Origin: a virus
Taxonomy: Duplodnaviria; Heunggongvirae; Uroviricota; Caudoviricetes
IMG/VR virus record: IMGVR_UViG_2877285697_000006
Location: 1-36,292 of that record
Length of the DNA stretch: 36,292 bases
Direction: 5' to 3' (one strand)
The notes below the pieces were generated by a model. It saw only the letters and a program-made list of their open reading frames with translations. It did not search any database and was not told where the DNA came from. Both the position numbers and the translations under genes were made by a program. How positions within the stretch are numbered: position 1 is the stretch's first letter; every line of letters starts with the position of its first letter. Positions 1-36,292 of the stretch are shown piece after piece.

Positions 1-273
1 ATGAACATCGGTAAAGCAATCATCAACTACGCAGCGCGTCGCAACATGGACATTACCTTGATTGGGGATGAGACCGTGGCGTTCTGGGAAGCGGATAACG
101 ATTGTGAATGGATGTTCTCCTACATGATTGGTAATGATGGTTTCCTCCACTTTAAAGGCAATGTGTATCTGCCGCAGGATATTAAAGAAGAATTACCAGC
201 GTGCATCGATACAGACAAGAAGCTGAAAGAAGTAATCAACTTTATCGCTAAAGAGTTTATCAGCAAGAAGTAA
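1..273 (+). CDS. hypothetical protein (90 aa); window starts exactly at its ATG so the 5' end may be truncated
   Basis: Open frame 1..273; TAA overlaps ATG of next ORF (TAATG), suggesting translational coupling. Confidence 0.45.
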   Translation: MNIGKAIINYAARRNMDITLIGDETVAFWEADNDCEWMFSYMIGNDGFLHFKGNVYLPQDIKEELPACIDTDKKLKEVINFIAKEFISKK

Positions 274-710
274 TGTCTAATTTGGCGGGTACTATTCCCG
301 CCGATTTAAACGGAATACAGACAATGTTCAATATTATGACTCGTAAATTTGGTGAGATGACTTTCGAGAAAGCTGGTGTTGCTCGTACCGAAGAAGAAGC
401 AATGGCCTTAGTTCTGGTAGCACTGAGATCATCAACTGAGATTATCGACGCTGAATATGTAGCCGCAGAAGGTGAGATTAACGAGGTTAAAGCGGTGGCT
501 AAGGAATTAGGTGTTAAAGGTTTCCGTAAGCTGAGACTATCCCGCGAGTCATATGTAATTGGTAAGCAAGGACAATACCTAGATGAGAATACCGTGATTA
601 TTCTACTGAATAAGATCACCCGCTACGGTTGGAAGATTGAGCAATATAAAACGTGTTTCGAATTATACGAAAAAGGTTTGCTGGATACTCTGACCATCGT
701 TCGCGCTTAA
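273..710 (+). CDS. hypothetical protein (145 aa; alternative start at 324)
   Basis: ORF with TAATG overlap to upstream ORF; codons 4-10 are occupied by a hairpin repeat, so the true start may be Met18 at 324. Confidence 0.5.
   Translation: MSNLAGTIPADLNGIQTMFNIMTRKFGEMTFEKAGVARTEEEAMALVLVALRSSTEIIDAEYVAAEGEINEVKAVAKELGVKGFRKLRLSRESYVIGKQGQYLDENTVIILLNKITRYGWKIEQYKTCFELYEKGLLDTLTIVRA
276..313 (+). repeat. hairpin-containing repeated element, copy 1 (ctaatttggCgggtActattcccGccg + T-rich tail + aaacgga)
   Basis: Near-identical to the element at 717-757; stem GGCGGG/CCCGCC. Confidence 0.5.
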
Positions 711-1018: not shown

Positions 1019-1438
1019 ATGAAAAAGATTATCGCTGGTGTTGTTCTTGCTCTGGGTTTGGTTGGTGCTGCGAATGCTAATACCTATACCTATTATGTGT
1101 GCAATTCCTACTTCGAATATAAAGGAGATGATACACGCTACCTGAGTGATGGCGACCGTTATTATCATGCGCCGTCTGGCAAATACCGTAGTTTTATCGG
1201 TGTAAAGGTTCGAGTGAATGATGATAATAGTCAATTTGCTTTCAACGATCCGGTATTTGATAAAACAATCAAAAGCCCAAAACTGAAAGAAGATAAGAAC
1301 GAGAAAGAAGAATATTATGGTTCCGAAGATGGTAAATCCTACATCAAATATCTGCATTCTGTAGATGGCGCGCCTATATTTGATGTTAAAAAAGGTGATA
1401 CGTCTTATTCCCTGATTAGCTGCCGTGAAATTCTTTAA
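1019..1438 (+). CDS. secreted protein with N-terminal signal peptide (139 aa)
   Basis: MKKIIAGVVLALGLVGAANA signal-like N-terminus; SD AAGAGGAAA 7 nt upstream; antisense ORF 875..1357 judged spurious. Confidence 0.6.
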   Translation: MKKIIAGVVLALGLVGAANANTYTYYVCNSYFEYKGDDTRYLSDGDRYYHAPSGKYRSFIGVKVRVNDDNSQFAFNDPVFDKTIKSPKLKEDKNEKEEYYGSEDGKSYIKYLHSVDGAPIFDVKKGDTSYSLISCREIL

Positions 1439-1452
1439 TCTTTAATCACCTA

Positions 1453-1489
1453 GCCCCTATCGTTATAATACGCGGTAGGGGCGTTTTTG
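1453..1489 (+). terminator. hairpin (GCCCCT...AGGGGC) followed by GTTTTT
   Basis: 6-bp GC stem with long loop then T-run, after stop of 1019..1438. Confidence 0.35.
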
Positions 1490-1501
1490 TTTGGAAATGG
1501 T

Positions 1502-3181
1502 ATGAAAACTAAACTGTATTCGTATATTCGCTTCTCGTCTATGCGTCAGAATGATGGTTCGAGTTATGAACGACAAATCAGGATGGCTAGAGAGATTGCG
1601 GTAAAGTATGACCTTGAACTGGTAAATGATTATCAGGATCTGGGTGTATCTGCGTTTAAGGGTGCTAACTCCAAAACAGGGGCGCTATCTCGTTTCCTTG
1701 ATGCAATAGGTAGATCCGTTCCTGTTGGTAGCTGGCTATTCATCGAAAACTTGGACCGTTTATCCCGTGCCGATATTGTCAGTGCGCAGGAGTTATTCCT
1801 TTCAATCATCCGTAGGGGGATAACCATTGTTACTGGCATGGATAACAAGATCTACTCGCTTGATACTGTTACCGCTAACCCGATGGACCTGATGTTCTCC
1901 ATCCTTTTATTCATCCGTGGTAATGAGGAAAGCCAGACTAAGCGCAATCGTACTAACTCAAGCGCACTGATTAAGATTAAAGCTCATCAAGAAAATCCAC
2001 AAAATCCGGCTGTTGCAATCGAGGAAATTGGAAAGAATATGTGGTGGACTGATACCACATCTGGTTATGTGCTTCCTCATCCGGTCTTCTTCCCTATTGT
2101 TCAGGAAGTTGTGGAATTACGCAGGAATGGACGGTCAACCGCCGAGATACTGGATCACCTTAACGCGACATACACACCACCACCAGCCGCAAGTCACAAG
2201 AGGCATTCAAACTGGTCACGGGCAATGATTGAAAGGTTGTTCCATACCCGCGCTTTGATTGGTATCAAGGAAATCTCTGTAGATGGCGTTAAGTATGAGT
2301 TAAAGGATTATTATCCTCGTGTGCTAGATGACGCTGAGTTTTATCACCTTAAGAAAAGCATTGGTGTTAGAGCATGTAACTTTGGAGACAAAGAAGAAGC
2401 TAAACCTATTCCCTTGCTTAGTGGTGTTGGTCTATTGAAATGTGAACATTGCGGTTCCGCTATGGTTAAGGTGAAAGGAACAAACAGACGGCCTAACCAA
2501 TATCGTTATTCATGCGATGCAATGCGCTCTAGTCGTATTGAATGTGTGCATACAAACTGGAGTTTTCGCGGCGACCAATTAGAGAAAGCTGTATTGCAAT
2601 TGCTGGCTGATAAAATCTGGATTGCTGAAGATAAGGCTAATCCGGTTCCGGCTTTGAAAGTACAGATTGATGAAATATCACGCAAGATTGATAACCTGAT
2701 TACCCTTTCTGCTATGACAGGAGCAACGAAGGAGCTAGCCGATCAGATTACTACCCTCAATAGCGAGCGTGAAACACTCTACAATCAACTTAAGATGGCA
2801 GAAGAGGAAATGTATTCTGTTGACTCTCAAGGCTGGGAGAAGCTCGCAGAATTTGATTTAGAAGATGTTTACAACGAGGATCGCATTAAGGTCCGGTTTA
2901 AGATTAAGCAAGCTCTAAAACGGATCGGGTGTAGCAGGATTGACAAGTACAAAAACTTGTTTGTACTGGAATACATCGATGGCAAGACCCAGAGAGTTGT
3001 AATAGAAAATTCAAGAGGACCGAGGAAAGGCCGGATCTTCGTTGATTTGAAGACTATCAATGATAGGCAGATTCTGGAGAGTAACGGGCTTGTTCTGCAT
3101 CCATGTTTAGACATGCTGACAGATAAGAACTGGAAACCAGAAGAAGAAATACCAGGTCCATTACAAGAATTTGGAATTTAA
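1502..3181 (+). CDS. large serine recombinase (serine integrase-like)
   Basis: N-terminal resolvase-type catalytic domain (YSYIRFSSMRQ...LDRLSR), ~560 aa, zinc-ribbon CEHCG...YRYSCD...IECVH; start taken at MKTKLY rather than track start 1487. Confidence 0.8.
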   Translation: MKTKLYSYIRFSSMRQNDGSSYERQIRMAREIAVKYDLELVNDYQDLGVSAFKGANSKTGALSRFLDAIGRSVPVGSWLFIENLDRLSRADIVSAQELFLSIIRRGITIVTGMDNKIYSLDTVTANPMDLMFSILLFIRGNEESQTKRNRTNSSALIKIKAHQENPQNPAVAIEEIGKNMWWTDTTSGYVLPHPVFFPIVQEVVELRRNGRSTAEILDHLNATYTPPPAASHKRHSNWSRAMIERLFHTRALIGIKEISVDGVKYELKDYYPRVLDDAEFYHLKKSIGVRACNFGDKEEAKPIPLLSGVGLLKCEHCGSAMVKVKGTNRRPNQYRYSCDAMRSSRIECVHTNWSFRGDQLEKAVLQLLADKIWIAEDKANPVPALKVQIDEISRKIDNLITLSAMTGATKELADQITTLNSERETLYNQLKMAEEEMYSVDSQGWEKLAEFDLEDVYNEDRIKVRFKIKQALKRIGCSRIDKYKNLFVLEYIDGKTQRVVIENSRGPRKGRIFVDLKTINDRQILESNGLVLHPCLDMLTDKNWKPEEEIPGPLQEFGI

Positions 3182-3185
3182 GCTA

Positions 3186-3443
3186 ATGAAGATGATTAAG
3201 ATTTTAGGTTTGATTTTATCTATGAATTCTTGCTTGGCATTGGCAACCGTAGACCAAGAAATGCGTAGACCGCTAACCTATAGAGAAGATGCTTTCATTG
3301 ATGGAGCACATAAGACATTGAAATTGCTATGTCAAAAGACCACCAGTAATTACGATGAATACAGAAAATGTTATGAGGAATCACTAGACATTTATTCTGA
3401 TGAGGTGAGAAAGATTTTCATAGAACAAGAAAATAAATCATAG
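3186..3443 (+). CDS. small secreted or lipoprotein-like protein
   Basis: MKMIKILGLILSMNSCLALA signal-like N-terminus; start ambiguous between 3171 and 3192. Confidence 0.45.
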   Translation: MKMIKILGLILSMNSCLALATVDQEMRRPLTYREDAFIDGAHKTLKLLCQKTTSNYDEYRKCYEESLDIYSDEVRKIFIEQENKS

Positions 3444-3480
3444 GCGGCCTAAATCGCCGTATAACGAACCAAACGCTTTA

Positions 3481-3509
3481 AGGGGTACATCCGTACCCCT
3501 TTTTAATTT
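3481..3509 (+). terminator. rho-independent terminator (AGGGGTAC-atcc-GTACCCCT + TTTTAATTT)
   Basis: Perfect 8-bp stem, tetraloop, T-run. Confidence 0.6.
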
Positions 3510-3525
3510 AATTGCGTTAGAGAGT

Positions 3526-3723
3526 CTATAATTGGCTTAAATCAAGCTCTAGGTCTTCCGGTTCTTTCATTACTTCAACCAGAGACGGATCTACTTCGTC
3601 AAAAACGACTTTATCGTCTGCGGTATATTTGTCTATAATGAAAAAATGGTCAGAAATATAGCTTACGTCGCCAGCATATTCTAACAAAAAAGCGCCCACC
3701 AGAGGCGCTTTTGTTTTATCCAT
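3526..3723 (-). CDS. doubtful 65-aa ORF
   Basis: Open frame only; its 5' end is occupied by a terminator hairpin and it overlaps the endolysin stop. Confidence 0.2.
   Translation of the reverse strand: MDKTKAPLVGAFLLEYAGDVSYISDHFFIIDKYTADDKVVFDEVDPSLVEVMKEPEDLELDLSQL
3686..3717. terminator. bidirectional hairpin terminator (AGCGCC-caccagag-GGCGCT) with A-run upstream and T-run downstream
   Basis: GC stem flanked by AAAAA at 3686-3690 and TTTGTTTT at 3710-3717; just downstream of the endolysin stop on the minus strand. Confidence 0.45.
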
Positions 3724-4069
3724 TCCACCGTGATTTTTTTGATCTGGAATCGATATGCGTAAATGTTTTATATTTTCCTAAGCCGTATTGAGTAGGATAT
3801 TTCCCATCAAGATAAGCATGAACAATATCAGGCGAGACACCCTTGATAACAATGTCAGCCGCGCGGCCTCGAACATGATAGCTATTGGTTGCGCCGCCTA
3901 CATTCTTGTTATGAGTCGGGCAACGGTTCCCACTGTTAATAATCACTGGTTTACCGAAGTGCTCTCGTACATCCTCAAGAATCACCAGTAATTCAGCGTC
4001 GATTGTATCATAATCACATTTTCCGCATTTACATTTAAATTCCTTGCGAGAAAAATGCTTACTTAACAT
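3716..4069 (-). CDS. endolysin, peptidase M15 family (L-alanyl-D-glutamate peptidase type)
   Basis: 117 aa with zinc-peptidase motifs (SGNRCPTHNKNVGGATNSYHVRGRAADI ... FTHID); SD AGGGGG upstream. Confidence 0.75.
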   Translation of the reverse strand: MLSKHFSRKEFKCKCGKCDYDTIDAELLVILEDVREHFGKPVIINSGNRCPTHNKNVGGATNSYHVRGRAADIVIKGVSPDIVHAYLDGKYPTQYGLGKYKTFTHIDSRSKKSRWNG

Positions 4070-14393: not shown

Positions 14394-14900
14394 TTAAGAG
14401 ATTTTCAAAGTCTGCTTAGTGCCAGTCTTCTTAATGTTATTGAGGAAAGCAGCCGGAGGATTGCTTAACCAATAGTAATGAAAACCACTTTGCATACTGT
14501 TATAAGGAACAGTGACAGCCGCACCACCCAAATTAACCGTTATATTCCCCGCTCTGCCGTTCTGGAGATATACAGCCATAGTAGGAGTACCACCATTGAA
14601 TTGACCAACGATAACGCCAATTAGACGGCCTACGCCCACGTTTTCGGAGTTCTCCATTGACCCTTTACCGCGCATGTCAGTTACTGGATAGTTAGAAGCA
14701 GTTACACCCCAGTTATTACCCAATGAAGTAGACCACGCAGCAGTAGCTACAACCGTATCCATACCACGACCAGCCATTGCCGACATATTACGCGGAGCCG
14801 GAACTTTTAAAGCTGTTAATGCTTCTTTCATCCATCGCTTACCCGTCACCGATACAGCAGATGACCCGATCCAGCCAGGAACTTTAACGACATTTGCCAT
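14394..14900 (-). CDS. tail protein (major tail or tail terminator candidate)
   Basis: 168 aa, SD GGAG upstream, immediately upstream of G/T. Confidence 0.4.
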   Translation of the reverse strand: MANVVKVPGWIGSSAVSVTGKRWMKEALTALKVPAPRNMSAMAGRGMDTVVATAAWSTSLGNNWGVTASNYPVTDMRGKGSMENSENVGVGRLIGVIVGQFNGGTPTMAVYLQNGRAGNITVNLGGAAVTVPYNSMQSGFHYYWLSNPPAAFLNNIKKTGTKQTLKIS

Positions 14901-15601: not shown

Positions 15602-18600
15602 TTATTTAGTTGCTTTGAGTTCGGCAATCTCTTTAGTCAATGCTTCAATCTTAGCTTGATATTTGGCGTCCATTTCCTGAATAGCTTTAATAATCAAGGC
15701 ATTAACAGCAGAGTTAGAAATAGTCTTAATTGCTTCCGGTTGTTCTGGATCTTCGGTGGATTGAATACCTACTGCTTCCGGCAATACTTCCTCCAGATCC
15801 TGAGCAATAATACCGACTTCGCGTTTAATCACTGTGTCATCGGAAAGAGATTTAACTTTATCGTATGTGTAGACTTTCAGGGAGTTTACTTTCTCTAATG
15901 CGCCGTCCTGTAATTCTTCCTTGTTAATCTTCAAACGGGAGTCAGAGCGAATGTAAACATCGTTAAAGCTACCGTTGCGATGAGCATTAAAATCACCGTC
16001 CATAGTAAATTCCCAGCGTGCTTGCTGCCCGTTGGCGTTATCACCTCGCATACGGATAATACCAGTACGCCAACCGTGAGTCGAACCGCTACCCGTCCAA
16101 CCAAACTCGAAGGACTGACGATAACCAACATCACCTAAGTTACTATAGCCAGCGATAATAGGGAAATATGCACCAGACTCCTTAATACTATCCATGTTAA
16201 CCAAGAATGGAGCACGGTCACGAGTTACATCAGAGATATCGGCATAACCGAAACCGTTTTTGTTGGCAACAACAACACGACGGTTAAATGTAACACCGCC
16301 TGACGTATGGCGAACAACATTAACATTATTAGCGTAGGTATCAAGAACACCATCACCGTTTTGTTTAAATCCAGTATCACTATCGCCTAAAACAATAGAA
16401 TTTCCACCCAATCCGTTAGCAACACCAACACCAAAACCGCTATTAAACTTAGGAATGGTTGCATCCTGACTAATAGACAGTTGGGGAGCGTTAATTTTAC
16501 CGTTTACGCTAAACTCGATTGCGGTAGTACCGGGACCGCCAGCACGCTGTGTGTAGAAATGCCAGCCGCTTTCATCTGCGCATTCTAATACTTGTTTACG
16601 AGTATCATTACCCCATGCACGAATATTGAAGCTAGATTGTCCGGTATTCTTACCCCATCGCATTTGACCAGCAACTTCAAGATCACCTAAGAAATATGCC
16701 TTTAGTCCACCTGTAGCCATATTACGTTCAGTGCTGAAATGTCGGCCTTTACTGTCTTCGAGATATAGAATGTTATCACGGGCATTATTGCTGTCGCCCC
16801 AATGGTTAAACCGGAAATAGTCTCTAGATTGTCCAGCACCAGCATCAAGTGTTAAATGTTGACCTTTGATGAAAGCGTTTCCAGCGAATCGAGCGGCTTT
16901 GCTTGCACGTTCTAACGTTAATGCGTCTCCGTTACCGTCACCGCCTAATTGAACGTTACCGGAAGTTAAATCATAAATGAATGGACGGTAAGTATTCCAA
17001 CCACCAAATTTATCATTTTCAGCCGTTGACAGAAGATAAACTTTAGCGGAGTCATTACGCCAGAATGCACCATAATTGCCGTAAATCATACGAAATGCGT
17101 TATGGTTGGCAGCAACATATTCGCCGTTAGTATAAACTACTTTAGTAGATCCAGTATTCAGAGAGATTTGACCGCTTTGTTCTAAGCCAATATTGTTAGT
17201 ACCGCTATCGTTATACATCTGCATAGCGTTAGTATCGGCATTTCCATAACCAACCCAACCTTGACGCTTATTTGCACCGTTGCGAGTGTCCCAATATTCC
17301 AGATAGTTACTTTGTCCGGTTGGTCGCTGCATACGAATAGTATTAGATCCGGCATCAAAAACAGCTTTACCAGTATACATAGTGCGTCCAGTGATTCGTA
17401 GAACTTCGCTAGAATCGGTAGTGCCAGTCGCTAAACGATATACGTTACCTTGAACAGTTTCATGCCAGATTGTTTCTGCGGCTTTACTACGGAATTTACG
17501 CAGATATTTTTTACCAGTACCTGAATCGTTATTCAAACTGACAATATCATATGTTCCCTGACCGTTATTATCAAACATCAACGTTCCGGCCTTGTTTTCG
17601 GTGTTGAACATTGTAATAACACGTCCATCAGTAACACCAGTAGACGGCTTAACGAGAGTTATTTCAGGAACGTCATGTACCGTCAGTGTAACATCGTTAG
17701 TTTTACCATATTCGACAATAACGTTATCGGTATAACGACCGTAGTTAACGTAGATATCGTAGTTATCACCGGAAGTATTAACCGCAAATACTTGATGAAT
17801 ATTTTTAGCATTTCGACGATAAGCCGCAATACTAACGCCTTTCGGGTTTCCGTTGCCGCTACGAATGACGATTTCTACAAAGTCAACCTGATCATAGGAG
17901 TTAACGTTATAACCGTTACCACCGAAGATACGAAGCATTACCATTCGACCAGTTTGTGGGATCGTGGCGGTTGCGATTTTGAAATAACCGCGAGTCGCAT
18001 CACCAGCCGGAACAGACATTTTAACGTTTTTAACAAACATCTTGTCAACTTCGGCTTTGGTATATGCGCCAATTTCAGCAGGAGTCGGTTTATCCCCTTC
18101 GTGATACATTTTATAGCTAAACGCTTTTTGTCCTTCTCTATCAAAACCATAGGTTTCAACACGAGATCCACCAGACGCATAACGGAAAGTAAATCCGCGA
18201 CCGTGCGCTTTACCGGAAGAGTGAGGAACGTTAAGAGTTAGATCCATGAGTCCATCTTGACCATTGGTACGGAAAGCACCGAAGTAATTAAGATCTCTCG
18301 CGGTTGAATCTTCCAGATAGTTACCAGTCTTGCTATACAAATACGCGCCGTGATAGGTCTTTGTGTTCTTCTTGATGTAAAGAGCATCGTTAGTACCTTC
18401 AATACCATCAATTCGCTTGTTGGCGGCTGCAATCGCTGCGTCGGCACTGGCCTTGTTATTTGCAACAGTTCGTTCAATGGCTGTCTTATTCGCAGAGACC
18501 GTACTAGTAAGACTGGTGATCTTCGTGTCCGCGTCTTTCTTATTATCGGAAACAGTTTTTTCGATCGCTGTCTTGTTCGCGGAGACAGTACCCGTTAAAC

Positions 18601-19210
18601 TAGAAATTTTATTATCAGCGTCGGTTTTATTCGCGGTAACAGTCTTAGTTAAATTGCTAACATTGGTGTTGGTAGCATCGACTCGCGCGTTAGTATTGGT
18701 ATTGTTGGTGTTAACGGTATTAGTAAGAGTAGTGATCTTACTGTCTGCATCTTTCTTATTGTTCGCGACGGTAGTCTCAATCGCTGATTTGTTCGATGCA
18801 ACGGTGTTAGTTAAGCTGGTGATCTTAGTATCAGCATCAGCTTTATTCGCCGTTACCGTCTTAGTTAAGTTGCTAACATTGGTGTTGGTAGCATCAATGC
18901 GCTTATTGGTTGCGGTGTCTTTAGTGGTAATAGTCTGATTCAGTTCAGATTTAGCAGCAGCCAGATTATTAGCGGCTTCTTGTTTGTTGGAAGAAATAAC
19001 ACGGTCAGTGTTGGTTTTATTCTGGTCTACTTTCGTGTTAAGTTCAGCGTGTTTTTCTGGAGAAACACTAATTTGGACTACGTTATTATTTTTGTCTTTG
19101 GTGTAAATCACATGGTCCGCCAGTTGTAAAGCGATCTCACCCTGTGATAATTGTTCCGGCGTTGGTTTTTTACCAGCCGTTTGTGTGCGTTTAAATTGGA
19201 TCGATTTCAT
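15602..19210 (-). CDS. tail fibre protein with C-terminal intramolecular chaperone (peptidase S74-type) domain
   Basis: 1202 aa; ~33-aa repeats (TKTVTANKxDADxKISSLT...); C-terminus SDSRLKINKEELQDGALEKVNSLKVYTYDK...GIIAQDLEEVLPEAV fits the auto-cleaving chaperone motif. Confidence 0.8.
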   Translation of the reverse strand: MKSIQFKRTQTAGKKPTPEQLSQGEIALQLADHVIYTKDKNNNVVQISVSPEKHAELNTKVDQNKTNTDRVISSNKQEAANNLAAAKSELNQTITTKDTATNKRIDATNTNVSNLTKTVTANKADADTKITSLTNTVASNKSAIETTVANNKKDADSKITTLTNTVNTNNTNTNARVDATNTNVSNLTKTVTANKTDADNKISSLTGTVSANKTAIEKTVSDNKKDADTKITSLTSTVSANKTAIERTVANNKASADAAIAAANKRIDGIEGTNDALYIKKNTKTYHGAYLYSKTGNYLEDSTARDLNYFGAFRTNGQDGLMDLTLNVPHSSGKAHGRGFTFRYASGGSRVETYGFDREGQKAFSYKMYHEGDKPTPAEIGAYTKAEVDKMFVKNVKMSVPAGDATRGYFKIATATIPQTGRMVMLRIFGGNGYNVNSYDQVDFVEIVIRSGNGNPKGVSIAAYRRNAKNIHQVFAVNTSGDNYDIYVNYGRYTDNVIVEYGKTNDVTLTVHDVPEITLVKPSTGVTDGRVITMFNTENKAGTLMFDNNGQGTYDIVSLNNDSGTGKKYLRKFRSKAAETIWHETVQGNVYRLATGTTDSSEVLRITGRTMYTGKAVFDAGSNTIRMQRPTGQSNYLEYWDTRNGANKRQGWVGYGNADTNAMQMYNDSGTNNIGLEQSGQISLNTGSTKVVYTNGEYVAANHNAFRMIYGNYGAFWRNDSAKVYLLSTAENDKFGGWNTYRPFIYDLTSGNVQLGGDGNGDALTLERASKAARFAGNAFIKGQHLTLDAGAGQSRDYFRFNHWGDSNNARDNILYLEDSKGRHFSTERNMATGGLKAYFLGDLEVAGQMRWGKNTGQSSFNIRAWGNDTRKQVLECADESGWHFYTQRAGGPGTTAIEFSVNGKINAPQLSISQDATIPKFNSGFGVGVANGLGGNSIVLGDSDTGFKQNGDGVLDTYANNVNVVRHTSGGVTFNRRVVVANKNGFGYADISDVTRDRAPFLVNMDSIKESGAYFPIIAGYSNLGDVGYRQSFEFGWTGSGSTHGWRTGIIRMRGDNANGQQARWEFTMDGDFNAHRNGSFNDVYIRSDSRLKINKEELQDGALEKVNSLKVYTYDKVKSLSDDTVIKREVGIIAQDLEEVLPEAVGIQSTEDPEQPEAIKTISNSAVNALIIKAIQEMDAKYQAKIEALTKEIAELKATK
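18430..18960. repeat. tandem ~99-bp DNA repeats inside the tail fibre gene
   Basis: Repeated units visible on the DNA; produces low-complexity antisense ORFs. Confidence 0.6.
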
Positions 19211-24552: not shown

Positions 24553-25047
24553 TTATCGCGTAAGACGTAATTTGATATTTTTAATCGGACTAATTCCCTG
24601 TTTACGTCGTTCGGCTTGAATTAATTTAGATAACTGACATTCATAATCAGTCTTTAATTGCTGGAGAACAGCCAATGACTCATAGGCGAAAGTATTCCCT
24701 TTCACTGTCATTTGAGATAATGCGGCTTCGTCCCCAGATAAACGGGCGAAAATAACTTGCTCGATTACAGAAATCGTTTCGCGCAGATATTCTTTTTTGG
24801 ATTGTTTGGCGAATACTGGCAAAACAGTTAATTCCTGCATTGATACCAGTTCTTCTTCCAAAGTTATTACGATGGTATATTTACCTTCGGCAAAATCTAA
24901 GGTTTTAATCTCGTGATTAGCCGGAGTATCATCAACCTGATAAATGATACCTTTACTATTTCCTACCTGAATTGTTACACCCTCTTCATTCGCCAGCGTG
25001 ATTTTTTCGCCTTTACGAATTACTAAGGGAATTAGTTCTAAACTCAT
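24553..25047 (-). CDS. hypothetical protein (164 aa) between terminase and portal
   Basis: ORF in late operon. Confidence 0.5.
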   Translation of the reverse strand: MSLELIPLVIRKGEKITLANEEGVTIQVGNSKGIIYQVDDTPANHEIKTLDFAEGKYTIVITLEEELVSMQELTVLPVFAKQSKKEYLRETISVIEQVIFARLSGDEAALSQMTVKGNTFAYESLAVLQQLKTDYECQLSKLIQAERRKQGISPIKNIKLRLTR

Positions 25048-29784: not shown

Positions 29785-30360
29785 AGTGGAATCCTCTAAA
29801 AGAAAGTGAATCAAAGTAATTCTGATATTATTTATAAGAGAAAATTCTTGATGATTTTGGAAGGGATGGATTCAGTCGGCTTCGCCTCCTTCATAGATTT
29901 GATTAAAAGACCAGCAAACGTAACTCGGATCTTATAGTTAATATAGTTATCTTTGAAGAAATAATAATCAGGAAGCAATTTCAGCAACCGCAGGTTGCGA
30001 TCCCGAAGGGATAACCAATACCTTTCTAGAAAGTGATTGTTACTCACTTCGTTCGTTTACTAGAATCAGTTATCATCTAGTATTAAATCCCTTTCTAAGA
30101 AAATCCTTTCAAAAGTGAGTGAACGCCGTAGGCGTGAACGTGAGCGAAGCGAACTATCCAATCCCTTTCGAATCCTGCTTGCAGGTCTTAGAAGGTGTTG
30201 GTGGGCGCTACGCGCACGGCTACGCCGTATTCTTTTTGCGAGATCTTTCTTGAACGTAGTGAGAGAAAGCGAGCAAAAAGGAGAACGTTAGTTCGAATTT
30301 TATATTCTATGGTCTGTGGGGTATAATCCCTTTCAAGATCATGCACTTACGTTATTGAAG

Positions 30361-30460
30361 TGTAGGGTTAGTGTAGGTGTGTAGGTTTCATAGAGTAGGT
30401 TTACTGGCTAGTGTAGTGTAGGCCAATCCCTTTAAAGTGTAGGTGTGTAGTGTAGGTTTT
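30361..30460. repeat. cluster of about 7 direct GTGTAGG(T) iteron-like repeats
   Basis: Same-orientation repeats within 100 bp in a noncoding region, followed by an AT-rich stretch. Confidence 0.55.
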
Positions 30461-30654
30461 CTATCAAAATTTTTGACAAAAAATTCTTGTATATTATTTA
30501 ACCAAAAAATCACCAAAAAGCGGCGTAAACTCATGATTTAAAAGTGATTTTCAAAAGATCTCCGTGCCATAATAGGTTATAAAGGTTGATAATCATTATC
30601 TGCCATTTTCAAACAAAAATTTTGATACACTTTTCTCGCTTAGGTCATGGGCAT

Positions 30655-30682
30655 TGACAAGTGTCAAGAACTATTTTATACT
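30655..30682 (+). promoter_or_regulatory. strong sigma70-like promoter (TTGACA - 16 nt - TATACT)
   Basis: Consensus -35, near-consensus -10; -35 embedded in palindrome TTGACAagTGTCAA. Confidence 0.6.
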
Positions 30683-31026
30683 TTTTCTCACTGGTAGGGG
30701 TTGAAATTTTCCAAACAATCCCCATATAGATGATAAGCATGATTTTTTCGTGTATAAATACATGCATGAAAAATGATTGTTCACTTCTGAAAACCTCCTG
30801 ACTCACTGTTAACTCATACAGCACTGGTTAGATACACAGTGCTTTTTCGGTTGAATATTGTACGGATTGATTAATTATTAATCTTCTCTTTAGCAATTCG
30901 TGCTCCCACTGATCGGATATACAGTGGTTTTACAGAGTTTTTGAAAATCATTTTTATAAATAGAATTGTTCAGAGCGAAAAGCTCTTTTTAAAGAAATCA
31001 TTATTCCAGATTTAGGAGGATTCAAG

Positions 31027-31209
31027 ATGGCACGACCTGTTAAGTTCACTCGTGAAATCGTTTTAGAAATGGCAAAGCGTTATTTTGAACTGACACCTGA
31101 TGTAGTGATGGGTGATTGGTTTAAAGGTGAAGGCATTGATCAATCAACCTTCCATAAACTTTTAAAGAAGTATGAAATTCGCGTAAAGATTACCGCCGAG
31201 GTGTGGTAA
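31027..31209 (+). CDS. small DNA-binding-like protein (60 aa), paralog of 27746..27979
   Basis: SD AGGAGG upstream; MARPVKFTRE... aligns with the 77-aa protein. Confidence 0.45.
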   Translation: MARPVKFTREIVLEMAKRYFELTPDVVMGDWFKGEGIDQSTFHKLLKKYEIRVKITAEVW

Positions 31210-31250
31210 TAACCTTTGACTGAGAATTATATGATGGCTTTAAAAATAAA

Positions 31251-31281
31251 AAGCCTCCCTGTTGGCGCAAGGAGGCTTTTG
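31251..31281 (+). terminator. hairpin terminator (AGCCTCC...GGAGGCT + TTTT)
   Basis: 7-bp stem, 12-nt loop, short T-run. Confidence 0.5.
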
Positions 31282-31325
31282 ATATGAACAATTAAAACTA
31301 ACACAGCATTCAGGAGTATTTATAA

Positions 31326-33241: not shown

Positions 33242-34535
33242 CTGAGGAATCCCCAGAAAACAAGACAGGCATAGTGAGATGTGATCTAATTGATTGTGCT
33301 AACAATTTCAAGGAGATCACCACTATGCCTGCACGTTCATTATGCCAAAATTTCCTTAACAACATACTGGCCCCTTTGCATCTTTACCGTCAAAAATCAC
33401 TGATTGACGCAACTAATGCTGTAATAAATGGCGCTTCCCTCACACTTACCAGTATCGGGCGTCATTTAACCGGTACGGCATCAGTTAAAAACAAAATAAA
33501 GCGGGTGGATCGACTGTTGGGGAATCGACATTTGCAAAATGAGGTTTCCACCATTTTTCAGCGAATTACCCAAAAGATTACGCGGGGAATGTCTCGTGTT
33601 GTGATACTCATTGACTGGAGTGCTTATCATGCCTCTCGTTTTCAGCTTTTGCGGGCAAGCCTGGCATGTGACGGGCGTTCTTTACCGTTGATGAGTTGTG
33701 TCGTTCCATCATCACAGACAGCGAATGCAGATGTACATGAGCGTTTTCTGGAATCGCTTGCTGAGTGCTTTTCCCCCGGGACTGATGTCATTGTTATTAC
33801 AGATGCCGGTTTTCAGGGGCGATGGTTCCAACAGCTCCGCTCCCGTGGCTGGACCTATATTTGCCGGGTACTGGGCAATCATTATTACAATGTTGGTAAT
33901 GGCTGGGAAAAGGTGTCGGACTCAGGCACAAAAGCATCAACGACAGCAATTTATTTAGGTGAAGGCCTGCTGGGTCGAGATAAAAATGCACAACATGAAG
34001 GGCATTTTTATCTTTATAAAAGTAAGCCTAAAGGTCGTAGATTTAAACGCTCGAAGGAAAGAGCAACCAGACCATCGGTGACGGCTAAAGCTCGTACTGC
34101 CGGGAAATCACCATGGTTTATTTTCACAAACAGTACTGAGTTATCGCCAAAACAGGTAATGAAATTATACAGCCGTAGAATGCAAATTGAGCAAAATTTC
34201 AGGGATGAAAAAAATCCTCGCTGGGGATTTGGACTACGGTTTGGTGCCAGTCATTCATCCGGGCGGGTCACGGTATTGAGTCTGAGCGCAACATTAGCCA
34301 GTATCATTATGTGGTTAAGCGGTTTCAGCCTGGAAAACAAAGGGATACATCATAAATATCAGGCAAATACAGTGAAGCACAGGCGAGTCATCTCGCTATT
34401 AAAACTGGCGGAGAATGTGATTCGACATTCTCCACTCATACTAAACACACTGTCACTTGACGCAGGGCTGAAAGTTCTACAGCAACGGTATACCAATATG
34501 ATAATGGTTTACTAAATTTTCTGGGGATCCCTCAG
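33242..34535 (+). mobile_element. IS10-like insertion sequence (IS4 family), about 1.29 kb
   Basis: Terminal inverted repeats CTGAGGAATCCCCAGAAAA (left) and CTGAGGGATCCCCAGAAAA (right, reverse complement), 19/19 with 1 mismatch; flanking direct repeat GGGTGATTCC at 33232-33241 and 34536-34545 (9-bp TSD with 1-bp ambiguity). Confidence 0.85.
33325..34515 (+). CDS. IS10-type DDE transposase
   Basis: N-terminal region ...KNKIKRVDRLLGNRHL closely matches the IS10 transposase as recalled (IKRIDRLLGNRHL); SD AAGGAG; start at MPARSL rather than track start 33274. Confidence 0.85.
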   Translation: MPARSLCQNFLNNILAPLHLYRQKSLIDATNAVINGASLTLTSIGRHLTGTASVKNKIKRVDRLLGNRHLQNEVSTIFQRITQKITRGMSRVVILIDWSAYHASRFQLLRASLACDGRSLPLMSCVVPSSQTANADVHERFLESLAECFSPGTDVIVITDAGFQGRWFQQLRSRGWTYICRVLGNHYYNVGNGWEKVSDSGTKASTTAIYLGEGLLGRDKNAQHEGHFYLYKSKPKGRRFKRSKERATRPSVTAKARTAGKSPWFIFTNSTELSPKQVMKLYSRRMQIEQNFRDEKNPRWGFGLRFGASHSSGRVTVLSLSATLASIIMWLSGFSLENKGIHHKYQANTVKHRRVISLLKLAENVIRHSPLILNTLSLDAGLKVLQQRYTNMIMVY

Positions 34536-34599: not shown

Positions 34600-35154
34600 T
34601 TAAGACACATCAAATTCATCGTCTTCTTCTGGTTCTTGTTCCGGTTCATCCATTAATGGTAATTCTTCTTCCTCGTCTTCTCCCAAATCTGCATTTTCGA
34701 ACAAGTCCCCTACTTCATTTAAACGACGCTCGATAATCTCTCTTAGCTTATTCTTCAATGTTTTCTGATCAGTGGCGGATTCTAAAATTTCTAAAGCATC
34801 GATCGTACAAATCTGCAAAATAGTCTGTTTCACTTTCCCGCAGTATTCCGCTAGTTCCTGTTCTACATAACCGACAGGAATCAGGAGATTCATTTTTTCC
34901 TGGTTCTCTCGTTCGGCTGCATCTGCCATTGCTCTTTCTCTGCGGAGACGTTCTTGATCAATCGCTTCTTTGATTGAAGTTTGTTTAAGTGGGTTAATTA
35001 CGTTCTTTAGCACCCAATCGCAACCTTCCTTTGCCGGAACACGCCTCGTATTGGTATTGTAAGGTAGTCCCCTTTCTAACCATCGCTTACCGCCACCATT
35101 CAATGAATAGCCATATAAACGGGAAATTTCTGTAAGGGTTAATTCTTCTTTCAT
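34600..35154 (-). CDS. terminase small subunit candidate (Nu1-like DNA-binding protein)
   Basis: N-terminal HTH-like LTEISRLYGYSLNGGGKRWLERGLPY, coiled coil, acidic C-terminal tail; SD GGAGGA; candidate cos-like GC island upstream. Confidence 0.45.
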   Translation of the reverse strand: MKEELTLTEISRLYGYSLNGGGKRWLERGLPYNTNTRRVPAKEGCDWVLKNVINPLKQTSIKEAIDQERLRRERAMADAAERENQEKMNLLIPVGYVEQELAEYCGKVKQTILQICTIDALEILESATDQKTLKNKLREIIERRLNEVGDLFENADLGEDEEEELPLMDEPEQEPEEDDEFDVS

Positions 35155-35512: not shown

Positions 35513-36292
35513 ATGAAAAACATTATCGCTGCTATCGTTCTTTCTGCTACTGCTTTCGGTGCTAATGCTGCGTCCTTTGATTGCACTAAGGCTACTACCA
35601 AATCAGAGAAGTTTATTTGTGCTAATGAGTCAATCTCCGCACTGGATTCGAAACTTCATGAAGTATATGTTAAGGCTGTTAAGATTGATCCGTCTCTTAA
35701 ACAAGAGCAACGCAACTGGAATAAAACTGTTCGTGATACAATGATCAATATCGGGCAGATTCAGCCACTGGAGGCTGTATACAACGCTCAAATCCAAAAC
35801 TTGATGAATGTATTATCTAAAGAAGAAACCGCGTCAGAGAGCGATTCAGAGACTTCTGCGAAGATTGAAGAAGAACAACCGAAACAGGAAGAAGTAAAGA
35901 AACTGAATGTTACCGCGATTTATGCATGTACTACAAAATTTACATGGAAAGTTATCGATGGTGAGGAAACAGAAGCTGTAAAAGATAAACTCTACGGAAA
36001 CAAAACTTTTGATAATAACGGCGGTAAACTTAAGATCAAAATGGTAGACGATGTTCCTGTATCTTTTGTGTATTCCGACAAGTATGATGTTTATAAATCA
36101 AGTCTCAAGCCATCTAAAGAGAATCCAAACGCAATGGAAGGTAAATCCAAACAGGATGCTATTGGACGTGTTAACACTTATAACATCTGGGTAAGCAAAA
36201 AAGGTGACATGCGTCTTGAAGTAATTGAACCAAAATTTGATTCTGAATATAAACACACTCAATTTGCATGTGACATGGTAGACGCAGAGTAA
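35513..36292 (+). CDS. secreted DUF1311/LprI-like protein (259 aa)
   Basis: Signal peptide MKNIIAAIVLSATAFGANA then ASFDCTKATTKSEKFICANESISALDSKLHEVY, fitting the LprI N-terminal domain pattern. Confidence 0.6.
   Translation: MKNIIAAIVLSATAFGANAASFDCTKATTKSEKFICANESISALDSKLHEVYVKAVKIDPSLKQEQRNWNKTVRDTMINIGQIQPLEAVYNAQIQNLMNVLSKEETASESDSETSAKIEEEQPKQEEVKKLNVTAIYACTTKFTWKVIDGEETEAVKDKLYGNKTFDNNGGKLKIKMVDDVPVSFVYSDKYDVYKSSLKPSKENPNAMEGKSKQDAIGRVNTYNIWVSKKGDMRLEVIEPKFDSEYKHTQFACDMVDAE

Follow-up and report, generated by a model that had tools for sequence, protein, structure and literature searches.

A predicted large serine integrase of a lambda-like Escherichia coli prophage and its reconstructed attachment sites in hicB

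Results

A large serine recombinase gene in a viral sequence

The window examined in this study, a 36,292-nt stretch of viral DNA (IMG/VR record IMGVR_UViG_2877285697_000006, Caudoviricetes), carries at positions 1502–3181 on the plus strand a gene predicted to encode a large serine recombinase (LSR) of 559 amino acid residues. Sequence comparison with complete bacterial genomes indicated that this protein is very likely the integrase of a prophage, which would insert the phage into the antitoxin gene hicB of Escherichia coli with strand exchange at a TT dinucleotide.

The open reading frame (ORF) of the LSR starts at ATG 1502 and terminates with a stop codon ending at 3181, and RefSeq annotates the same 559-residue form; an in-frame TTG at 1487 would extend the protein by five residues. 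The prediction as a prophage integrase was based on the ORF, Pfam and PHROGs matches, and the predicted fold. Three Pfam domains, Resolvase (residues 6–153, E = 2e-14), Recombinase (residues 198–286, E = 1.5e-7), and Zn_ribbon_recom (residues 310–368, E = 7e-10), were detected, all exceeding the curated cut-offs, and the protein matched phrog_95, "integrase", in PHROGs (E = 7e-58). In an alignment of 41 family sequences, R10, D85, R86, and R89 and the four cysteine residues C314, C317, C338, and C348 were invariant, and S12 was at least 90% conserved. The predicted nucleophile, Ser12 (codon 1535–1537), was placed by the YIRFS motif.

In the AlphaFold2 model of the LSR, with a mean predicted local distance difference test score (pLDDT) of 82.7, the catalytic domain and the alpha-E helix (helix 127–164; Pfam Resolvase) occupy residues 1–164 (window 1502–1993, plus strand, as for all segments of the LSR). 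They are followed by the Recombinase domain (approximately residues 175–293) and the zinc ribbon (approximately residues 305–372), which were recognized from Pfam and the model and probably constitute the site-specificity module (2024–2617). After the zinc ribbon come a coiled-coil motif of residues 382–437 (helices 382–406 and 410–437 in the model; 2645–2812) and a C-terminal beta-rich domain of approximately residues 460–540 (2879–3121), which is conserved in the family, has no Pfam coverage, and was seen in the model, where the beta domain spans 472–532 with strands 472–479, 484–491, and 496–502. The best structural matches of the model in PDB were full-length serine integrases (9dxd and related entries, phiC31 9rah, 4bqq, and 4kis), with 13–15% identity in the structure alignments; a sequence search of PDB gave one weak match only.

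The protein thus has the features of the LSR class: the catalytic Ser/Arg/Asp/Arg/Arg residues, a Recombinase domain followed by a four-Cys zinc ribbon, and a coiled coil, the last known from prediction. In this family, the coiled coil functions in synapsis and directionality. The ratio of nonsynonymous to synonymous substitution rates (dN/dS) between LSR variants was 0.08–0.26. Databases name the protein only "recombinase family protein"; judging from its sequence, window 1502–3181 very probably encodes a genuine large serine integrase, as yet uncharacterized. The first-pass annotation of the window had described a serine recombinase of about 560 residues with a zinc ribbon, in agreement with the 559-residue ORF, the three Pfam domains, and the LSR fold found here.

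Attachment sites in hicB

The distribution of the LSR was determined in a collection of 5426 complete E. coli genomes and by exact-protein look-up. The look-up placed the identical LSR protein in E. coli and Shigella chromosomes adjoining ydcR; among the matches listed, 10 of 10 contexts adjoined ydcR at the same junction. In NZ_CP024134 (E. coli 14EC017), the element sits between two hicB fragments. Rejoining the host flanks gave 328 nt that were 100% identical to intact hicB, and the uninterrupted hicB site was present in 5281 of the 5426 genomes. The hicB junctions recurred across independent strains, with the left junction (attL) in 22 genomes and the right junction (attR) in 28, when a coverage of at least 80% was required. 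The first-pass annotation had proposed an integration module, a proposal that an absence of prophage copies from host genomes would have contradicted. Copies with precise junctions were present in many E. coli genomes, and therefore the proposal was not contradicted on this point; the LSR gene is also the only integrase-type gene of the element.

The phage attachment site (attP), reconstructed from the phage ends, is approximately 54 bp long and reads GTTATTTTGGGTTGACTACATTCGGG-TT-GCCAAATATTATGTACCCACAATAAC, and the bacterial attachment site (attB) within hicB reads ...CTCCTGTTTAGGT-TT-GCCAATTCGCCTGGCTAAC... The attP is an imperfect inverted repeat, whose arms match at 18 of 26 positions when centered on TT and at 5–11 positions in other registers (chance P of approximately 4e-6). 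Simple att sites of serine integrases have about 40–50 bp and imperfect dyad symmetry, and the reconstructed attP resembles them in this respect. The overlap of the hicB-type attB and attP is TTGCC(AA), depending on the phage variant, and TT lies at the dyad center.

Window bases 1 and 36292 correspond to positions 3727 and 41395, respectively, of L038, the closest complete genome. In L038, the crossover TT is located 43–44 nt to the left of window base 1 and 258–259 nt to the right of base 36292, and therefore both attP halves lie outside the window. The window matched the reconstructed attP and attB at chance level (best, 28 of 54 positions, compared with 27–30 in shuffled sequences). An attP had been expected at 1440–1500 or 3444–3530 in the first-pass annotation; both places turned out to hold hairpins with T-runs that resemble intrinsic terminators, and the attP halves lie beyond the window ends. 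On a circularized map of the phage, approximately 1.5 kb with three small ORFs separates the attP crossover from the LSR start downstream.

The 21-mer TTCGGGTTGCCAAATATAATG was observed in four metagenome contigs (L059–L062) otherwise unlike the phage. Three of the four contigs share the surrounding sequence, and therefore the 21-mer may belong to a conserved gene.

Related recombinases at ycdX and codB

LSR genes approximately 86–93% identical in nucleotide sequence split ycdX in E. coli, and Salmonella LSR proteins with 69–73% identity split ycdX too. LSR proteins of E. coli and Escherichia fergusonii with approximately 72% identity split codB. The rebuilt ycdX and codB sites both agreed with the intact genes. 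Intact ycdX reads GGGA-TT-TCCGGG, attL reads GGGATT|CCCTAAT, and attR reads CGGGTT|TCCGGG; from these sequences, the overlap between host and phage can only be TT. Serine integrases cross over at 2 bp, and the overlap of the ycdX type is exactly of this length. Tyrosine integrases of the lambda Int type use an identical overlap of 6–8 bp or more in attP and attB, and therefore the 2-bp overlap at ycdX is too short for such an enzyme. The arms of the ycdX-type attP matched at 18 of 26 positions, and those of the codB type at 17 of 26 around TG. A ycdX overlap of TTCC with crossover at CC and a 1-nt insertion or deletion between the attP types was also considered and was rejected because intact ycdX shows TT. 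An Edwardsiella homologue (59% identical), which has a ycdY-like gene and a fragment of a gene as neighbors, is located only approximately 230 nt from the junction, as in the classical layout.

Several genomes (NZ_CP157110, NZ_CP063332, NZ_CP043414, NZ_OY856299, and NZ_CP124819) were noted for double prophages, remnants, or rearrangement. Two prophages, one of the hicB type and one of the ycdX type, reside in each of strains UTME-9 (NZ_CP157110) and BS74R-D (NZ_CP063332). Strain C325 has its attL and attR approximately 205 kb apart on opposite strands, suggesting a rearrangement through the prophage.

LSR domains that vary with the target gene

LSRs of the hicB type share 92% identity with those of the ycdX type, the differences being concentrated in the DNA-binding domains. 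In residues 151–375, other hicB-integrated LSRs were 96–99% identical to the LSR of the window, compared with 80–87% for ycdX-integrated LSRs and approximately 60–65% for the codB-integrated LSR. Alignment columns that separate the hicB type from the ycdX type fell within residues 196–351 in 22 of 25 cases (binomial P of approximately 1e-6), and residues 451–559 were 94–100% identical between the two types. The catalytic domain occurs as two alleles, approximately 79% identical, that are distributed independently of the target gene. We infer that target choice tracks the recombinase and zinc-ribbon domains and not the catalytic domain. In solved LSR–DNA complexes, these two domains read the att sites, and the co-variation observed here is the pattern expected if they do so in these proteins.

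Positive selection was considered as the cause of retargeting and was rejected: dN/dS did not exceed 0.26, and the synonymous rate dS was also raised in the recombinase/zinc-ribbon segment. This pattern favors an exchange of modules by recombination over a burst of substitutions.

The prophage element

The window has a G+C content of approximately 41%, opens on an ATG, and closes on a stop codon. It represents an E. coli prophage cut back to gene boundaries, and IMG/VR contains further copies of this element as proviruses of approximately 35 kb with identical gene-boundary starts. The LSR gene was found in 57 complete E. coli genomes (approximately 1%), on the chromosome in all cases and on no plasmid. 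A scan of species-representative genomes for the LSR protein found nothing because the representatives lack the prophage.

Pfam searches identified morphogenesis genes of lambda-family type (GpA_ATPase/GpA_nuclease, Phage_portal_2, Phage_TTP_11/12, Ig_GpJ_C, and Phage_tail_T). The gpA terminase, portal, tail tube, and gpJ tip make up a lambda-like morphogenesis and cos packaging module, as judged from the genes alone, and the element also encodes an M15 endolysin and a Rha-like regulator. The closest terminase of a cultured phage was 44% identical only, and a search for similar DNA among cultured phages gave a 42-nt match only and no close relative. The lambda-like character given to the phage in the first-pass annotation holds for the morphogenesis genes at the family level and does not extend beyond that. 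No Phage_integrase domain, and thus no tyrosine integrase, was found among the 46 ORFs of the window in the Pfam scan, and the RefSeq annotation of four related prophages contained no second integrase. Apart from an insertion sequence (IS) transposase, the LSR is the sole recombinase in the element. In all likelihood, the element is a temperate, siphophage-like E. coli element with lambda-like head, tail, and terminase that now resides as a prophage.

Neighborhood of the LSR gene

The conserved LSR cassette consists of window 1453–3183 and 3441–3562 and begins at a terminator-like hairpin with a T-run (1453–1482, plus strand) located 19 nt upstream of the start codon of the LSR. This hairpin has an 11-bp stem with seven GC pairs, followed by GTTTTTGTTT, and its folding energy was -21.9 kcal/mol (z = -3.8). 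A perfect TATAAT hexamer lies in its loop (1464–1469), so that this structure might also serve as a promoter of the LSR gene or block one. Downstream, between the convergent LSR and lysis genes, a segment at 3441–3562 (plus strand) contains another terminator-like hairpin at 3480–3501 (9-bp stem followed by TTTTTAATTT; z = -4.1). In relatives, this segment is 83–89% conserved and follows the LSR stop codon without a gap. The first-pass annotation had noted hairpins or terminators on both flanks, and these two hairpins bear this out. In the window, a lineage-specific 257-bp insertion at 3184–3440 (plus strand) separates the LSR from the segment and carries a small ORF (3171/3186–3443) whose product looks secreted; in relatives, position 3183 joins 3441.

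Variable cargo flanks the cassette at window 1078–1452, which is replaced in most relatives, at 3184–3440, and just after 3562. The cargo gene at 1019–1438 (plus strand), identified as an ORF, encodes 139 residues with an N-terminal sequence resembling a signal peptide. Neither this protein nor the product of the 3171/3186–3443 ORF had a match in Pfam, PHROGs, or PADLOC. The cargo slots of relatives (L006–L026 and L042 3507–6897) contain inserts of 1–3.7 kb with UvsW-like helicase, UvsY, and uncharacterized proteins of 330–390 residues, and a PADLOC scan of the cargo genes beside the LSR gave generic helicase matches only. Between the left junction and the LSR, two small phage ORFs (1–273 and 273–710; together 1–710, plus strand) are conserved in relatives and match phrog_6147 and phrog_14908, respectively, of no known function.

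Other features of the window

An IS4-family (IS421-like) element at window 33243–34534 encodes a 413-residue DDE transposase, has terminal inverted repeats, and is missing at that position in L038. About 14 nt of L038 are duplicated at its edges and look like a target-site duplication. Tail-fiber parts of the T4 type, namely a Gp38 adhesin N-domain, a Gp34 trimerization domain, and an endosialidase-chaperone domain, are encoded at 14394–14900 and 15602–19210 (minus strand). They are embedded in an otherwise lambda-like tail module, in the region least conserved relative to L038, and a 216-nt tandem duplication was found at 18498–18929.

Window 29800–31300, approximately 1.5 kb without a long ORF, contains palindromes or inverted repeats at 30004–30051, 30462–30627, and 30539–30956. 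Its equivalent is also unannotated by RefSeq in relatives, and the stretch may have a regulatory role or contain an origin. No small terminase was recognizable beside the large terminase, and 24553–25047 had no family match. An ORF of 184 residues with an acidic tail (34600–35154, minus strand) is located near the right prophage end, approximately 7.5 kb from the gpA-type large terminase gene. At the right end itself, adjoining attR, window 35513–36292 encodes a secreted protein of the LprI family (lysozyme-inhibitor-like). A GIY-YIG nuclease takes the place of this gene in PRO_A-1412 and a 101-residue ORF in PE15, suggesting that the right end is another cargo slot.

Discussion

Proposed integration mechanism and its consequence for hicB

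In the LSR family, the protein alone recombines attP with attB, and excision needs a directionality factor. By the mechanism of this family, dimers of the window LSR would bind attP and attB through their recombinase and zinc-ribbon domains and undergo synapsis through their coiled coils. Ser12 would then make cuts staggered by 2 nt at TT in all four strands, and a 180-degree rotation of one half followed by religation would generate attL and attR. Excision should require a directionality factor encoded by the phage.

HicB consists of 138 residues, with a HicB antitoxin domain at residues 3–67 and HTH_3 at residues 88–134. Integration cuts the protein after residue 101, inside the C-terminal helix-turn-helix domain, and leaves hicA intact. 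The lysogen encodes HicB residues 1–101 followed by an eight-residue tail derived from the phage (NPNVVNPK). In every lysogen of the hicB type, the HicA toxin is intact and its HicB antitoxin is truncated, which may matter for studies of hicAB.

Alternative explanations

Several observations weigh against the assignment of the LSR as the integrase acting at hicB. The arm symmetry of attB is weak (7 of 20 positions), and the LSR gene, separated from the att site by approximately 1.5 kb and three ORFs, is farther from it than in classic LSR phages. The window itself contains no junctions, and its location was therefore deduced from genomes with the identical LSR. No candidate directionality factor was identified. 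Exact-pattern scans found no intact, unsplit attP in IMG/VR (0 matches) or in metagenomes; as the four metagenome matches, obtained with a shorter 21-mer, were unrelated to the phage, there is no evidence for the excised form. Furthermore, several copies of the prophage are decaying, with IS insertions or with remnants of 4–14 kb between attL and attR.

Part of this evidence would also fit a relic, in which the LSR is an integrase by ancestry and this copy, residing in a grounded and non-inducible prophage, moves nothing now. In addition to the negative attP scans, a relic would agree with the IS4-family element of the window (approximately 33243–34534), which is missing in a close relative, and with IS1, IS3, and IS421 insertions in the tail genes of relatives. 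Some genomes retain only 4–14 kb between the hicB attL and attR, one LSR copy is broken by IS1 and another is truncated, and Pfam recognized no repressor or replication genes. However, the LSR ORF is intact and identical across many assemblies, its dN/dS is 0.08–0.26, the head, tail, terminase, and lysis ORFs are intact in the window, and the IS4-family element sits between ORFs. Moreover, LSRs of this kind occur at three target genes and in several genera, which suggests fairly recent mobility. We therefore regard a relic as unlikely, while giving it serious weight.

The LSR could instead be an accessory recombinase similar to YbcK, with the phage being integrated by another, unrecognized enzyme. 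YbcK-like proteins of E. coli lambdoid phages are among the closest phage-encoded homologues (approximately 30% identity), and the LSR gene is not immediately beside the att site; to our knowledge, the role of YbcK-like proteins has not been established. This explanation is very improbable, given that the element has no second gene of integrase type, the 2-bp overlap at ycdX is unusable for a tyrosine integrase, the choice of target gene changes together with the DNA-binding domains of the LSR, and the Edwardsiella homologue abuts the junction. Even less probable is a DNA invertase or resolvase acting on phage-internal sites for host-range switching or multimer resolution, an invertase- or resolvase-like function having been the alternative offered in the first-pass annotation. 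Its catalytic domain is common to all serine recombinases, and the catalytic part of the LSR gave a weak secondary match to phrog_125, "DNA invertase". Small serine invertases and resolvases (Gin/Hin/Tn3) have 180–200 residues or so, a C-terminal helix-turn-helix, and inverted or res sites. In contrast to these enzymes of approximately 190 residues, the LSR has 559 residues and the full LSR architecture with recombinase, zinc-ribbon, and coiled-coil domains. Inverted pairs in the window are all at most 30 nt long and scattered, with neither an invertible segment bracketed by long repeats nor res-like arrays, and all LSR copies are chromosomal, with none on plasmids.

With the LSR taken as the integrase, a further, two-part interpretation can be put forward. 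The clade would represent a natural retargeting series, in which a shared scaffold, almost identical in its catalytic, coiled-coil, and C-terminal parts, received exchanged recombinase/zinc-ribbon modules directing one phage backbone to ycdX, hicB, or codB, and insertion into hicB would act as a reversible switch of hicAB. The HicB fragment could still neutralize HicA and lose repression of the operon, and excision would restore it. We put this combination forward as a conjecture and doubt that it holds in full.

Significance

This analysis proposes a function and exact att sites for a protein otherwise labeled "recombinase family protein" and points to a lineage of lambda-like enterobacterial prophages whose integrase would be of the serine and not of the tyrosine type. 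The hicB, ycdX, and codB variants are matched sets of attP, attB, and protein that could help to decode how serine integrases read DNA, and they might supply orthogonal integration tools for enterobacteria. Literature searches, in an incomplete library, retrieved no paper that describes the prophage or its integrase, or that reports its integration into hicB, ycdX, or codB. The LSR protein and its site were not present in the supplements of the recombinase survey by Durrant et al. 2022 that were available, a set of files that may be incomplete.

Comparison with known systems

The LSR shares its domain order and the catalytic Ser-Arg-Asp-Arg-Arg residues with the integrases of phiC31, Bxb1, TP901-1, and A118 and with the Listeria innocua LI integrase (4kis, 9rah, and 9dxd). 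Characterized LSRs likewise have a quasi-palindromic attP of approximately 50 bp, a non-palindromic crossover dinucleotide, and an attB in a host gene, the sites of the present element being reconstructions from sequence. The window LSR differs from them in its low identity in structural alignments (13–15%), its enterobacterial host, its extra C-terminal beta domain, and the distance of approximately 1.5 kb to the att site with cargo ORFs in between.

The best matches among phage records were the serine recombinases of the Burkholderia phages Bcep176 (gp53), JC1, and Bcep22, with 27.5–30% identity over 85% of the length. These proteins are annotated as serine recombinase or integrase and belong to phrog_95 like the window LSR; they are distant in sequence and come from other phage types and hosts. 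The YbcK-like LSRs of E. coli lambdoid phages and DLP12 show approximately 30% identity over 80–82% and also belong to E. coli and lambda-type phages. These phages also carry a tyrosine integrase, and YbcK, encoded in the late/nin region, is not known to have an att site. Unlike YbcK, the window LSR is the only integrase of its element, is encoded near a prophage end, and has att sites that could be reconstructed.

The interruption of a coding gene by an LSR element is also seen in "active lysogeny", as in SPbeta SprA/spsM, skin SpoIVCA/sigK, and A118/comK. These known cases occur in Firmicutes hosts, unlike the present one. As in active lysogeny, precise excision of the prophages described here would, according to the reconstructed sites, restore hicB, ycdX, or codB.

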